From the NCBI GenBank assembly GCA_017546125.1, contig JAFYXO010000013.1:33647-97646 (forward strand): DNA of 64,000 nucleotides. Direction: 5' to 3'. Positions 29,506 through 31,457 of the stretch are shown in pieces. The stretch comes from Bacteroidales bacterium (lineage in GTDB: Bacteria; Bacteroidota; Bacteroidia; Bacteroidales; UBA932). Position numbers and translations under genes: made by a program. Position 1 is the stretch's first letter. Each line of letters opens with the position of its first letter. A model generated the notes under the pieces. That model had not been told where the DNA came from and ran no database searches. It worked only from the letters and a program-made list of their open reading frames with translations.

Positions 29506-30249
29506 ATGAATTTCAGGACTTTCGGTAAAAAAGATGCTCCCGTGCTGATGCTGATCCCTGGATTGGGGGTCTCATTTGAGATATTCACACCTCTGATGAG
29601 GATACTGGAAGATAAGTTCCATATCATAGCTGTGGAGGTGGATGGATTTACATTAGGAAAGCATACCGCATTTACATCGGTAGATGACCAGGCAGGGCAG
29701 GTTATTGGGTATATCAAAGAACAATTTGATGGTAAAATAGAGTGCGCATATGGGCTTTCTCTCGGTGGAAAGATCCTCTCAAGGGTTCTGGAGAGGGGAG
29801 AGGTAGCCATTGGCCATTCGGTTATGGATGCAGCGCCATTGCTCCCCCTTCCTGGGTGGATGGTAAAACCGCTGAGTTATACCCAGGCGGCCAACGTGTG
29901 GAGTTGTTACCATTGGACCAGATTCTGGAGGTGGGTATTTCACTCTCACTATTTTGATGTGCTGCTTGATGAGTGTAGAAAGGTATATCCGTACGGAGGG
30001 GTGCAGGCTGTTCTGGATGGATACGAATCTGTCTATACTAACAGACTGGAATCCATTTCTAATACAGATATCCAATACTGGTATGGAACCAAAGAGATAT
30101 TTGTGGCCAAATATCAGGCCGACCACCTCAGATCGATATGTCCATCAGTCCGGATAGAGATATTCGACAAGATGAACCATGGACAGCTCCTGATAGATCA
30201 TCCGGAGGAGATAGCCAGGAGGATTGAGGAACTTGGGACCGAAGGATAG
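29506..30249 (+). CDS. alpha/beta-fold hydrolase
   Basis: Nucleophile elbow GLSLGG, oxyanion region LIPGLG, and C-terminal NHGQ histidine context. Confidence 0.75.
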   Translation: MNFRTFGKKDAPVLMLIPGLGVSFEIFTPLMRILEDKFHIIAVEVDGFTLGKHTAFTSVDDQAGQVIGYIKEQFDGKIECAYGLSLGGKILSRVLERGEVAIGHSVMDAAPLLPLPGWMVKPLSYTQAANVWSCYHWTRFWRWVFHSHYFDVLLDECRKVYPYGGVQAVLDGYESVYTNRLESISNTDIQYWYGTKEIFVAKYQADHLRSICPSVRIEIFDKMNHGQLLIDHPEEIARRIEELGTEG

Positions 30250-30250
30250 A

Positions 30251-30394
30251 ATGAATAGTCTGTTGTCTGATATTGTTGGAAGCCGTATTCCTGCGCCAAA
30301 TGGTCGCTATCTTTATGATCGGGAGCGTTGGAATAAAGAAATTCAGAAACTTTGTTTTGATAGCATAACTGATGCGATCAATCAAGTCCAATAA
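30251..30394 (+). CDS. possible 47-aa ORF or gene remnant (MNSLLSDIVGSRIPAPNGRYLYDRERWNKEIQKLCFDSITDAINQVQ*)
   Basis: ATG lies 1 nt after the hydrolase stop. Below the ORF-track size cut-off. Its last 21 nt form the left copy of the 23-bp direct repeat. Confidence 0.3.
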   Translation: MNSLLSDIVGSRIPAPNGRYLYDRERWNKEIQKLCFDSITDAINQVQ

Positions 30395-30396
30395 AT
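30374..30396 (+). repeat. left copy of 23-bp direct repeat GCGATCAATCAAGTCCAATAAAT
   Basis: 21/23 identity with 30795-30817. The 15-nt core TCAAGTCCAATAAAT is identical. Confidence 0.8.
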
Positions 30397-30443
30397 TATA
30401 TCTGATATATAGACATCCGAAAGGAGTAGGATGTGACGGGAAG

Positions 30444-30654
30444 AATCTCATCAGTATAGAGGAAGTGAGCGCACTTTGCGTAGAGCGTAAATCGAATGAA
30501 CGGTAAGTCGGTGTGTGGCGAAGCCAATGCCGGACCATGTTTGATGACGTTAGGCGTGCGTAGCACGACTAAAAGGAAGAGTTGTCCGGCAAGCCGACGT
30601 GAGTGAAATGAGTAGCTCGGAGCAATCGGAGCGAGCGTCTATACTGATGAGATT
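30444..30654. other. structured element closed by a perfect 17-bp long-range inverted repeat (candidate ncRNA or non-autonomous mobile-element remnant)
   Basis: AATCTCATCAGTATAGA (30444-30460) pairs perfectly with TCTATACTGATGAGATT (30638-30654). Nested helices inside include GTCGG/CCGAC, TGCCGGAC/GTCCGGCA, TGGC-GAA-GCCA and CGTGC-GTA-GCACG. Confidence 0.5.
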
Positions 30655-30673
30655 ACCCCCCCCAACTGAGATG

Positions 30674-30708
30674 TGACGCAGTGATATGTGGCTTTAGACA
30701 CTGCGTCA
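30674..30708. other. perfect 10-bp hairpin TGACGCAGTG ... CACTGCGTCA
   Basis: Arms at 30674-30683 and 30699-30708, with a 15-nt loop. Confidence 0.6.
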
Positions 30709-30794
30709 TGGCGCTGAATTCGATGAATTAGGCTTGAAACTATGTGTGAGGCAGTGAAAAATGCCCTAAAACAGTGCGTCGCTAATGAAATTTC

Positions 30795-30817
30795 GCAATC
30801 AGTCAAGTCCAATAAAT
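30795..30817 (+). repeat. right copy of 23-bp direct repeat GCAATCAGTCAAGTCCAATAAAT
   Basis: See 30374-30396. Here the reading frame is closed by a TGA 3 codons upstream. Confidence 0.8.
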
Positions 30818-31141
30818 GATGTCCCCAGTATTTCGGGTATGTTTTTTTAATAGCTGTCTCGCATAAGGTGTGCATTTATGTATCAATATTGTAGCTGTGA
30901 CAGTTTTTGGGCAAATAGTGATACGGTGGTGGCCAAATCAGCCTGAAATCATCGGAAATCAATGGGACTGTGTCAAAAAAGCAAGAAAAACTGCTACAGC
31001 TCAAGAAGAATCAGTTCAGCAGGTAAATTCGCACCTATACATAAATATATTCCTCGACGTCCTTGTTGGAGATTTGTTGTTTTCAAAATTGTCCCAGAAA
31101 TGTGCGATAGGGGAGATGTTGTGATTCCAATGGAAATAGCA

Positions 31142-31149
31142 TATCTTTG
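31142..31149 (+). promoter_or_regulatory. candidate -7 box (TAtcTTTG)
   Basis: TAnnTTTG lies 21 nt upstream of the ATG at 31170. Confidence 0.45.
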
Positions 31150-31169
31150 CTAGATAAACTTTTTGAAAA

Positions 31170-31457
31170 ATGAATTTAACCGGACTTCTTGTGGGACTTT
31201 CCACATTTTTGATAATCGGGCTGTTCCACCCACTTGTGGTCAAGGCTGAATATTATATCGGTGTTAAGAGCTGGGTATTGTTTGCTATTGCAGGGGTGGC
31301 CTTTGCGATAGCATCTGTATTGATAGACCATATGATATGTTCAATAATTATGGGTGTAGTGGCCTTCTCCTCATTCTGGAGCATACTGGAGGTTGTACAC
31401 CAGCGTGAGCGTGTACGCAAAGGGTGGTTTCCTGAAGGACCTGGACATAAGAAGTAA
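31170..31457 (+). CDS. small integral membrane protein (DUF4491-like)
   Basis: 95 aa with three hydrophobic helices and a basic C-terminal tail. Confidence 0.65.
   Translation: MNLTGLLVGLSTFLIIGLFHPLVVKAEYYIGVKSWVLFAIAGVAFAIASVLIDHMICSIIMGVVAFSSFWSILEVVHQRERVRKGWFPEGPGHKK

Follow-up and report, generated by a model that had tools for sequence, protein, structure and literature searches.

The repeats closest to the locus described here belong to several known groups. REP/BIME and REPIN-RAYT systems (enterobacteria, pseudomonads) are made of short palindromic units, single or in doublets, that occupy gaps at gene 3' ends; several repeat families are combined in mosaics, and a single-copy Y1/HUH (RAYT-type) gene is flanked by its cognate repeats. 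ERIC/IRU elements (Enterobacteriaceae, Vibrio) are imperfect palindromes of about 127 bp that form long imperfect hairpins in transcribed intergenic regions and vary widely in copy number among relatives; the ERIC hairpin is maintained by compensatory substitutions. BOX (boxA-boxB-boxC), RUP and SPRITE of Streptococcus pneumoniae and Correia/NEMIS of Neisseria are modular, mosaic, structured non-coding intergenic repeats that are co-transcribed with neighbouring genes, and the hairpin of the Correia element is a substrate of RNase III. In IS200/IS605 elements a Y1 HUH gene is bounded by subterminal hairpins, all on one strand, and their miniature derivatives, the PATEs, are built of the left-end and right-end hairpins; no target-site duplication is produced.

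A locus with likenesses to each of these groups lies in the window analysed here, i.e., a stretch of 64,000 nucleotides from a Bacteroidales genome. A preliminary description of its sequence had singled out an ORF-free, densely structured segment bracketed by direct repeats and proposed that it was a single element. We found that two multi-copy, folded non-coding families of uncultured gut Bacteroidales, neither of them catalogued, are patched together in this segment. These families, A and B, are unrelated, and the segment consists of both of them and a small hairpin rather than of one element. On one side of the patchwork a small gene ends; on the other lies a repeated copy of that gene's last 29 bases, with its terminator. 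With slightly better than even confidence, we read the segment as a mosaic of the BIME/BOX type, made of structured intergenic repeats that are dispersed and non-autonomous, in which A would be read through as 3'-UTR RNA and B would be IS200/RAYT-like. The features of the locus are as follows.

30224..30394, + strand: small ORF of 56 codons from TTG 30224 or 47 from ATG 30251, ending in ...AINQVQ*
30374..30402, + strand: left copy of the direct repeat, 29 nt, from the sixth-last codon of the small ORF through its stop and 8 nt beyond
30412..30988, + strand: block that is 95% identical in the sister species G002 (contig C16), with unrelated flanks there
30413..30434, + strand: small hairpin ACATCC-N10-GGATGT (-7.6 kcal/mol, z -2.3)
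30444..30460, + strand: 5' arm of the closing helix P1, 17/17 complementary to 30638-30654
30461..30640, + strand: core of family A, in which nested helices form a rod with one GCGAAGC side hairpin (covariance model R1, 210.7 bits)
30538..30553, + strand: 5' strand of the invariant module, UGUUUGAUGACGUUAG here, consensus UGUCUGANGACGUUAG
30569..30583, + strand: 3' strand of the invariant module, CUAAAAGGAAGAGUU here, consensus CUAAAAGGANGAGUU
30638..30654, + strand: 3' arm of P1, homologous to the conserved 5' region of several B copies (GTCTATACTGGGGAGATT)
30660..30800, + strand: family B copy, two related hairpins of ~36 nt (30674-30708, 30748-30780) with a conserved 37-nt spacer
30795..30823, + strand: right copy of the direct repeat, where a leftover of the small ORF's 3' end reads AISQVQ*
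30818..30848, + strand: weak hairpin and T7 run after the right repeat (-5.6 kcal/mol)

The non-coding, structured character of the segment was confirmed: its ORFs are short and overlapping (78 aa or less), and 30397-30794 folds at -133.5 kcal/mol on the + strand (z -5.2) and at -115.2 kcal/mol on the - strand (z -6.0), with 0/100 shuffles as stable in either case. Nor is the segment unique, since the genome carries five copies of A and about seven of B; both families are present in 5-6 of the 8 congeners. The hairpin at 30413-30434 is probably a diverged member of a family of short REP-like hairpins (ACACCCGA...TCGGGTGT). Hairpins of this type also border other copies of A and B, and a relative of the one in the window is found at C4:132826, where a 5' fragment of family A follows it.

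The small ORF at the left edge is a 5'-truncated member of a family of small proteins with the motif YDRxxWNKEIQxLCFD (27 representatives at E<=1e-3; full-length members of 57-70 aa). It is joined to the end of a hydrolase gene, and the similarity to the hydrolase locus of G007 stops at about 30240. The tail of this small ORF is found fused to different N-termini in different contigs. The left repeat had been described as the 3' end of a 47-codon ORF and the right one as a copy closed by a TGA three codons before AISQVQ*; both readings are correct, and the right copy reads AINQVQ* in sister species. The 23-bp repeats first reported, identical at 21/23 positions, extend to 29 nt with 25/29 identities. 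The left copy has no second occurrence in the genome besides the right one. Local alignment of the two flanks gives a score of 19 (shuffled flanks: mean 7.9, maximum 11.5), and by our own arithmetic the chance of a 25/29 match is ~2e-6 among about 3e5 position pairs. An intact ORF of the small-protein family (L119) has a terminator hairpin of -20.7 kcal/mol directly after its stop, and this hairpin is homologous to the sequence that follows the right repeat: at 30818-30848 the intrinsic terminator of the small ORF is present in decayed form. The sequence duplicated on either side of the A and B insert is the 3' end of a genuine small-protein gene.

Such a duplication could be the trace of one discrete element that integrated site-specifically in the 3' end of the small gene and brought a replacement end, the repeats being attL and attR, as the preliminary description had proposed. 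The repeat is indeed far beyond chance, it corresponds exactly to the gene's last codons, stop and terminator start, and its right copy retains the AINQVQ* reading in sister species. Yet the insert is composed of two independent repeat families, and no integrase, RT or TnpB-like ORF was found within ~3 kb of the segment when the ORF list was read by eye. The flanking repeat is also absent at the other four A copies of the genome, which give background scores, and at every other B copy. In sister species, family B is accompanied by the right repeat, and the left copy is missing: the G002 block includes it in unrelated flanks where there is no left repeat, and in G007, where the block is partly deleted, only the right repeat is kept with 45 nt of family B. 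Finally, the two copies differ at 4/29 positions, against 95% identity of the block between species, and two diverged gene ends or an old rearrangement fit equally well. We hold an integrative element with att sites to be very improbable.

The fold of family A has strong covariation behind it. The copy in the window spans 30444-30654, and the element is ~200 nt long with a core of ~180 nt. It is closed by the perfect 17-bp inverted repeat that had been noticed at the outset (P1, arms 177 nt apart), and the nested helices reported inside it are present. Among 43 distinct sequences, both sides change in 38 of the 44 pairs, 95.3% of the cells pair (33-46% with slid partners) and 0/500 shuffles match the observed values, in an alignment that was fitted to the model and hence leans towards structure. 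Within the genus, 16 of the 44 pairs are compensatory. G-U and U-G pairs outnumber A-C and C-A pairs by 70:10 in the diverse set and by 14:1 within the genus, and this asymmetry places the fold on the + strand. The fold of A is kept by selection across at least five genera, as expected of a structured RNA. The module UGUCUGANGACGUUAG...CUAAAAGGANGAGUU is invariant, and helices 8 and 9 never or almost never vary among the 43 sequences. The invariant internal loop is asymmetric (5'-GANGACG / 5'-AAGGA), allows tandem G.A pairs and adjoins an invariant UUAG/CUAA helix; loop and helix together are most likely a putative protein-binding site. G-T wobbles, however, are tolerated in folded single-stranded DNA too, and the sense bias may in part be a replication-strand bias.

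The closing helix P1 is specific to each paralogue lineage. The sequences of its arms are unrelated between paralogue lineages, and mutually so among the five copies of this genome, yet they pair over 13-40 bp. We considered several accounts of these arms. A MITE is rejected, because the arms are not conserved among A copies and the flanking direct repeat occurs at the window copy only. P1 as an older hairpin split by an insertion found no support: no intact hairpin made of the P1 arms occurs elsewhere in the genome. A P1 arm acting as a guide has one exact 14-nt complement, in a coding region (C7:4572), which we judged to be a chance match.

The combination of a conserved core and free arms also sets A apart from the described repeats. 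REPs lack its ~200-nt size, its conserved core with lineage-specific closing arms, its deep covariation and its bias towards the sense strand. ERIC/IRU elements belong to another phylum and have no sequence similarity to A. Copies of ERIC share terminal sequences and occur in both orientations, whereas A has paralogue-specific termini, lies in the sense orientation in 80% of cases, and has in addition the asymmetric invariant loop and the side hairpin. The repeats of Streptococcus and Neisseria show no homology to A or B, which also lack the target duplications and the conserved inverted repeats at the termini that characterise Correia and RUP.

Might A be a member or a cousin of a known class, such as retron msr/msd, TnpB/IscB omega-RNA, IS110 bridge RNA, hammerhead or box C/D-like k-turn RNA? 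Its core has CUGANGA, the core heptamer of hammerheads, with N variable as in hammerheads; the invariant loop could form tandem G.A pairs; and P1 resembles the a1/a2 repeats of retrons. Against this, no Rfam 15 family matched anywhere in the window at the gathering threshold, and at E<=10 the region 30200-31200 gave only four noise matches (12.9-16.6 bits). The invariant CUGANGA faces AAGGANGAG on the opposite strand, with no GAAA and no three-way junction around it in the covariation-supported fold, and no hammerhead model matches; the hammerhead is rejected. The retron-msr-like and omega-RNA-like identities initially suggested did not survive either. RVT_1 has no match in this assembly (G000), G005 or G007, all carriers of A, no RT-like ORF lies near any A copy examined, and instead of branching several times the fold forms one nested rod with a single side hairpin, which speaks against retron msr/msd. 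No TnpB, IscB or IS110 gene adjoins any A copy examined and there is no HEARO or IS605-orfB match in Rfam, which speaks against the omega-RNAs (including HEARO). A kinship of A with any of these classes is extremely unlikely. The other suggestions made at the outset, a non-autonomous miniature element or an RNA class not yet described, agree with a family that is non-coding, multi-copy, structured and missing from Rfam.

The distribution of A is patchy. It is present in 6/8 Candidatus Coprenecus species and lacking in the other two, and the covariance model R1 matches 12/151 genomes from 5/37 genera of the family, up to 10 times in one genome. One MAG has at least 18 exact-pattern matches, so that copy number spans 1 to at least 18 per genome. 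The 5' neighbour lies on the same strand in 24/30 copies (80% sense) and the 3' neighbour is convergent in 20/31, counts that rest on crude ORF calls and include orthologous, hence non-independent, copies. The neighbours are unrelated housekeeping genes (e.g., TruB, aldolase, glucokinase, peptidase, CDF transporter), among which no functional enrichment was seen by eye. A -7 box (TAnnTTTG) occurs within 160 nt upstream of 1/37 copies, compared with a background of 8%, and few copies have a T-run right after the element. A thus mostly lacks the pair of signals, own -7 box and intrinsic terminator, of a stand-alone sRNA gene of Bacteroidetes. Because A has no promoter of its own and lies mostly downstream of unrelated housekeeping genes in the same direction, we infer that it is transcribed by read-through; A and B are probably read through as 3'-UTR RNA.

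Some copies of A are rearranged. There is a chimeric copy (L123), some copies are 5'-truncated, and one lies at a synteny breakpoint relative to a 99%-identical relative. No clean empty site was found at the C27 locus in G003 and G006, because the upstream gene differs, or at the C18 locus in the comparison of G007 and G005, where synteny breaks off at the A copy, inside the 3' end of another gene. Phages and plasmids gave no match (pattern scan and blastn for phages, blastn for plasmids), and the element is not obviously borne by either.

These data bear on the possibility that A copies are genes of trans-acting ncRNAs, RNP scaffolds or protein-sequestering RNAs, kept by the host as paralogues whose loop binds a conserved partner. 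The deep covariation and the invariant module across genera are consistent with it, as are the strand specificity of the fold and the recurrence of paralogue types with the same P1 (C27-type, C15-type) at partly syntenic loci in several species. The patchy distribution, including the absence of A from two of the eight congeners, the range of copy numbers, the near absence of the canonical -7 box and of a T-run directly downstream, the truncated and chimeric copies, and the position behind unrelated housekeeping genes argue against it, and we regard it as unlikely.

Family B is a different kind of repeat. The perfect 10-bp hairpin of the preliminary description (30674-30683 / 30699-30708) is there, and so is a 36-nt direct repeat (30672-30707 / 30745-30780, 75% identity) that had been missed. 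The sequence of B is conserved and its covariation is essentially nil, unlike that of A, so its fold has no covariation support. Its organisation is that of a REPIN doublet, with 36-nt units 73 nt apart and a consensus fold in which the two units pair with each other. The arms GGTGTGACGCAGTGA...GGTGCGTCG are identical to the hairpins on both sides of a Y1/HUH gene (C15:66282-67238), whose orthologues in G001, G002 and G004 are flanked by the same hairpin; B thus appears to have a cognate Y1/HUH gene flanked by the same palindromic units, a link that rests on about 24 identical hairpin-arm positions and one locus. In the four species, 84-nt direct repeats with GACGCAG(C/T)G hairpins bracket this gene, which encodes a 318-aa HUH-like protein. 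The earlier statement that no recombinase is nearby thus holds within the window, but a Y1/HUH gene with B-type hairpin flanks is present on another contig. The genome encodes at least 13 Y1/HUH-like paralogues, and the one on C6 is flanked by its own high-copy repeat of ~110 nt, as in RAYTs.

The resemblance of B to the described systems has limits. REPINs come in tens to hundreds of copies, whereas B has only about seven, with 10 hairpins carrying this arm in the genome. The C15 gene is flanked by direct rather than inverted repeats, the Y1-like proteins have a length of about 300 aa and a C-terminal HTH, and no GTAG-type tetranucleotide was seen at the foot of the hairpin in the B alignment. 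Compared with TnpA(IS200), the C15-type protein is twice as large and its match to PF01797 is weak or indirect. There is neither a tnpB nor an omega-RNA here as in IS200/IS605, and the likeness to these elements lies in the sequence identity of the hairpin arms.

One may ask whether the folds of both A and B matter only as single-stranded DNA, as HUH (Y1) ends of the IS200/IS605-PATE or REPIN-RAYT type, with any RNA being incidental. The many Y1/HUH-like paralogues, the C6 gene with its own repeat, and the C15 gene, with its B-type hairpin flanks and an A copy at 386 nt in four species, are in line with this. So are the matches to PF01797, found in all six A/B-positive congeners and in neither of the two negative ones (8/8 coincide), and the lack of target duplications at the other copies, which is expected of Y1 transposition. 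For A, several observations point the other way. The P1 arms differ between paralogue lineages, and a transposase would therefore be unable to recognise the ends of A by sequence. The A copy lies outside the 84-nt repeats that bound the C15 gene, and in other genera no Y1 gene was found in the 8-kb loci around A; A as a part of the Y1 element is rejected on these grounds. Close relatives of the C15-type protein occur in only 7/12 A-positive genomes, compared with 29/139 A-negative ones, i.e., five of the 12 lack one, including G007, which has B. This family-wide co-occurrence is only modest. Lastly, the 80% sense orientation seems stronger than what a replication-strand bias alone would be expected to give. 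A role confined to single-stranded DNA for both families is in our opinion rather improbable.

The BIME/BOX-like mosaic that we favour suggests the following scenario. A is an uncatalogued rod-shaped element, with a fold selected on the + strand, that would be transcribed within 3' UTRs and would work, or at least be selected, as RNA. Its long, perfect and lineage-specific P1 would provide a stable 3' structure and is a plausible substrate of RNase III, whose cleavage may release the core. B would be a miniature hairpin pair (REPIN/PATE-like) of an IS200/RAYT-like element, and may move as single-stranded DNA with the help of the Y1 protein. Dispersed copies of A and B recombine, become truncated and mark synteny breakpoints, which would explain the mosaic and probably also the 29-nt duplication. 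A bolder proposal, which we find rather doubtful, is that A is a new class of functional RNA, a rod of ~180 nt that would be set free from unrelated mRNAs, in whose 3' UTRs it lies, when the closing duplex is cleaved, with the loop as a dock for a conserved protein or as a catalytic centre. The closing arms, free to vary in sequence, might even let every paralogue recognise a different target.

Gut Bacteroidales of the Coprenecus group thus carry a structured element that is absent from the RNA catalogue (Rfam 15) and whose covariation support equals that of many accepted RNA families; its invariant internal-loop module invites a search for a binding partner. The locus also illustrates how intergenic DNA evolves in these small genomes, where folded repeats recombine, are truncated and sit at synteny breakpoints, and where at least one family of repeats seems to be linked with an enlarged repertoire of HUH/Y1 transposase-like genes. 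For annotation, it accounts for several 'orphan' small ORF fragments in metagenome gene catalogues. If the RNA reading of A is true, a structured RNA embedded in 3' UTRs would be added to a phylum whose post-transcriptional biology is little known.

The preliminary description had placed 23-nt direct repeats (identical at 21 of 23 positions) around a structured segment, and all the features that it listed there hold. The repeat can be extended to 29 nt (30374-30402 and 30795-30823, 25/29 identical), and its flank-to-flank alignment scores 19, far beyond chance level (shuffle maximum 11.5). Repeat searches recover the perfect 17-bp inverted repeat (30444-30460 with 30638-30654) and the perfect 10-bp hairpin (30674-30683 with 30699-30708), together with an additional 36-nt direct repeat (30672-30707 and 30745-30780) that is 75% identical. 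The segment contains only short overlapping ORFs, none of them credible; the left repeat forms the 3' end of a small ORF (30224/30251-30394), and the right one is preceded by an in-frame TGA three codons upstream. Relative to shuffles, the folding of 30397-30794 has a z-score of -5.2 on the plus strand and -6.0 on the minus strand.

What was not borne out is the idea of a single element between the repeats. BLAST against the organism's own 1.86-Mb assembly revealed that the segment is indeed multi-copy, but splits it into two families. Family A (window 30451-30642) recurs on contigs C15, C18, C27 and C3 with 82-84% identity, and family B (about 30584-30801) on C13, C21, C37, C41 and C42 with 75-78% identity, C34 holding a fragment. 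Both were found again in five to six of the genus's seven other species. For family A, a covariance model (R1) derived from a 12-copy genus alignment identifies five copies in the own genome and matches 12 of 151 genomes, belonging to 5 of the 37 genera of the taxonomic family; a single genome has at most 10 copies by this model. Scanning species-representative genomes with a pattern gave 43 family A loci, at least 18 of them in one MAG. These copies (EPI_MAG_00004, L052-L075) are near-identical, which suggests a recent burst. Units in the genus of this MAG are longer and combine a small GC hairpin, which comes as either of two compensating forms (GGCGC...GCGCC or GCGTC...GACGC), the rod behind it and, after the rod, one or two GCACCTTTTG...CAAAAGGTGC hairpins.

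Family A is a covariation-supported, strand-specific fold with an invariant module. When the own-genome copies are aligned, the conserved core spans about 165-180 nt. P1, the long-range helix closing this core, differs in sequence in each of these five copies while pairing is kept; it measures 13-17 bp here and up to about 40 bp in other genera. For the 12 genus copies, RNAalifold predicts a rod in which the helices are nested and a single hairpin (GCGAAGC) branches off to the side, with compensatory changes in 16 of 44 pairs. In a set of 47 model-aligned matches (43 distinct), 38 of the 44 pairs have changes on both sides, standard pairs fill 95.3% of cells (33-46% when partners are slid by 1-3 columns) and 0 of 500 shuffles attain any observed covariation measure, counts that must be read knowing that this alignment was fitted to the R1 model. 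The ratio of G-U/U-G to A-C/C-A is 70:10 in the diverse set and 14:1 in the structure-blind genus alignment, one U.G pair occurring in 33 of 43 sequences, and this excess indicates that the folded strand is the plus strand of the window. The apical rod is essentially invariant (UGUCUGANGACGUUAG - variable hairpin - CUAAAAGGANGAGUU). Two of its helices never or almost never vary (UCU/AGN and UUAG/CUAA), and the asymmetric internal loop between them (5'-GANGACG / 5'-AAGGA) might, to judge from its sequence, make tandem sheared G.A pairs. Sequence varies in the apical hairpin, which tolerates inserts of 57-78 nt.

This fold belongs to no described family. Scanning the whole window with Rfam 15 at gathering thresholds gave no match, and a local search at E<=10 gave noise-level matches only, so the Rfam comparison proposed earlier returns no known family; the phage collection, the plasmid collection and viral contigs had no family A match either. 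CUGANGA, the core heptamer of hammerhead ribozymes, is present in family A, but the strand opposite does not read GAAA, and the fold has no three-way junction. The retron-msr-like and omega-RNA-like readings of the preliminary description fail as well: the fold is not retron-like, RVT_1 is absent from the A-carrying genomes G000 (the own assembly), G005 and G007, and no TnpB, IscB, IS110 or integrase ORF lies beside the family A copies examined.

Judged from gene context, family A is placed like a repeat that is dispersed or embedded in 3' UTRs, and not like a stand-alone sRNA gene. For 33 copies drawn from diverse genomes, the closest 5' ORF shares the strand of the element in 24 of 30 cases (binomial p about 7e-4) and the closest 3' ORF converges on it in 20 of 31, an orientation rule obeyed by four of the five own-genome copies. 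The upstream genes, read by eye, are unrelated and housekeeping (TruB, fructose-bisphosphate aldolase, ROK kinase, peptidase, CDF transporter). The Bacteroidetes -7 box TAnnTTTG occurs within 160 nt upstream in 1 of 37 copies (8% in random windows), and few of the 37 have a T-run right behind the element. Of the two multi-copy families, A lies behind genes, in sense, and without promoters of its own. A true family of trans-acting RNA genes, which could also have a covarying fold, seems unlikely with such a placement. In the C3 copy, the closing helix has a 5' arm (C3:1983-1996, CAGTATGCATAGGG) with an exact 14-nt complement in a coding region on another contig (C7:4572-4585), which is probably chance (by estimate about 0.1 for all arms tested). 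Another repeat family (C27:3760-3920; L024 query 707-860), immediately upstream of the C27 copy, is ~90-150 nt long and has a terminator-like hairpin (GGGCAC...GTGCCC) and many copies across the genus.

Family B is a pair of related hairpins, GACGCAGTG...CACTGCGTC and GA(C/G)GCAGTG...(A/G)GTGCGTC, with a conserved spacer between them; its sequence is conserved and covariation is almost absent. By sequence comparison, its hairpin arms are identical to flanks of a Y1/HUH transposase-like gene. This gene (C15:66282-67238) is bracketed by 84-nt direct repeats whose hairpins have in common with family B the 15-mer GGTGTGACGCAGTGA and an imperfect 3' arm, GGTGCGTCG, and the arrangement is kept in three other species (G001, G002 and G004). 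The earlier statement that no recombinase is nearby is right for the window, but on another contig the C15 gene has B-type hairpin flanks. Within the genus, PF01797 (Y1_Tnp) matches coincide with A/B elements in 8/8 genomes (six with both, two with neither). With the matching arms and this co-occurrence, family B is placed, at moderate confidence, among REPIN/PATE-type repeats, a putative miniature partner of a Y1 element and a low-copy new member of that kind. Across the family, close relatives of the C15 protein occur in 7 of 12 A-positive and 29 of 139 A-negative genomes, only a modest link of that protein with family A. A purely single-stranded DNA role for both families would accord with their shared coincidence with PF01797 in the genus; we find it quite improbable, even more so than trans-acting RNA genes.

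The own genome (1.86 Mb) encodes at least 13 paralogous proteins of 290-330 aa with an HUH motif (HVH or HFH), several with weak PF01797 matches and a C-terminal HTH-like tail. Their expansion is striking (contigs C8, C10, C12, C14, C18, C21 and C33), and they may be transposases or domesticated DNA-binding proteins. Hairpin flanks of the C15 type were not seen around the other paralogues. Outside the window, at C6:63961-65563, a 303-aa Y1/HUH-like gene (64161-65090, minus strand) whose motif is HFH has its own ~108-121-nt repeat on either side; this repeat contains the hairpin GGGTGGGTGATTTTACCCACCC and occurs in dozens of copies genome-wide, apparently a RAYT-like (REP-RAYT-like) arrangement in a Bacteroidales MAG.

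Comparisons between loci show that A and B copies undergo recombination and truncation. The sister species G002 carries window 30412-30988 at 95% identity between unrelated flanks (small hairpin, A, B, right repeat, terminator and a further 140 nt). G007, the closest relative, shows 97-99% identity elsewhere; its syntenic right flank retains window sequence from 30755 onwards only, and the sequence downstream of its hydrolase orthologue is unrelated to the window. In metagenome contig L123, a chimeric A joins a 5' part with the window's P1 arm to the 3' part of the C15 copy and the Y1 gene downstream of that copy, and therefore points to recombination between dispersed copies. In front of several B copies stands the 3' third of A without its 5' partner; in G002 and G004, three window-type A copies are missing ~40 nt at the start of the core, and C4:132826 is a 5' fragment of A. 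Against a 99%-identical genome, the C18 copy marks a break in synteny; no clean empty site was found in relatives for the C27 and C18 loci. A shared module, CCTTGCCGTATTTGCTGCGCAAATAC...CCGCGGGKCGTCTGATGACGMC, adjoins broken A copies on either side (C4:132900-132990, and upstream of truncated copies at G004:C28 and G002:C33) and looks as if it had split an A element.

The small ORF does belong to a genuine protein family. Among 1.84 billion representatives it has 27 matches at E<=1e-3, several of them low-complexity hits to long proteins; the remaining ones are proteins of about 57-112 aa with the motif YDRxxWNKEIQxLCFD, often starting with MAEVLxCV; full-length members have 57-70 aa. Pfam has no family for it. 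One metagenome contig has an intact member:

L119:3001-3192, intact small gene; its stop is directly followed by a strong terminator hairpin (-20.7 kcal/mol).

In the window, a weak hairpin with a T7 run (30818-30848, -5.6 kcal/mol) is homologous to this terminator, and therefore the right repeat and what follows it represent a native end of the gene, the left repeat being that end still on the ORF body. About 10 codons are missing at the N-terminus of the window ORF, which is joined to the end of an alpha/beta-hydrolase gene (29506-30249). The hydrolase is 71% identical to L119:3386-4126, co-directional and fused here but convergent in L119, a difference that implies that the locus was inverted or otherwise rearranged. 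Elsewhere among the metagenome contigs, this ORF tail is attached at different points to different upstream sequences (for example P0002 in L123, and P0005 in L118, behind an amidase fragment). The L119 gene is preceded by HIRAN and DUF5053 small genes, which lends the family a mobile-element or phage-like flavour. The proposed gene-end duplication around an insert agrees with the homology of the right repeat and terminator to an intact gene end, but such repeats do not recur at other A/B copies. Because no other copy has them, and the G002 block lacks the left one, these elements do not have a general att site in this repeat. The 29-nt duplication may be a long target duplication produced when the A+B block inserted, a pair of tandem gene ends that have since diverged, or the outcome of recombination that placed a block with its own gene end beside a resident copy.

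The closest known kinds are REP/BIME, REPIN-RAYT, ERIC/IRU, BOX/RUP/Correia and the miniature derivatives of IS200/IS605. Like ERIC, family A would act as a transcribed hairpin repeat (transcription is predicted here); unlike ERIC, it has paralogue-specific ends, a large conserved asymmetric core with an invariant loop, a strong sense bias and covariation that spans genera. On balance, we lean towards a mosaic of dispersed repeats combining a 3'-UTR fold (A) with a Y1-moved hairpin pair (B). Read-through from the upstream gene would carry A into the 3' UTR, where it would fold; the long perfect P1 may stabilise the 3' end, or RNase III cleavage may release the core, and the invariant loop may bind a protein, while B would move as single-stranded DNA via the Y1 enzyme.
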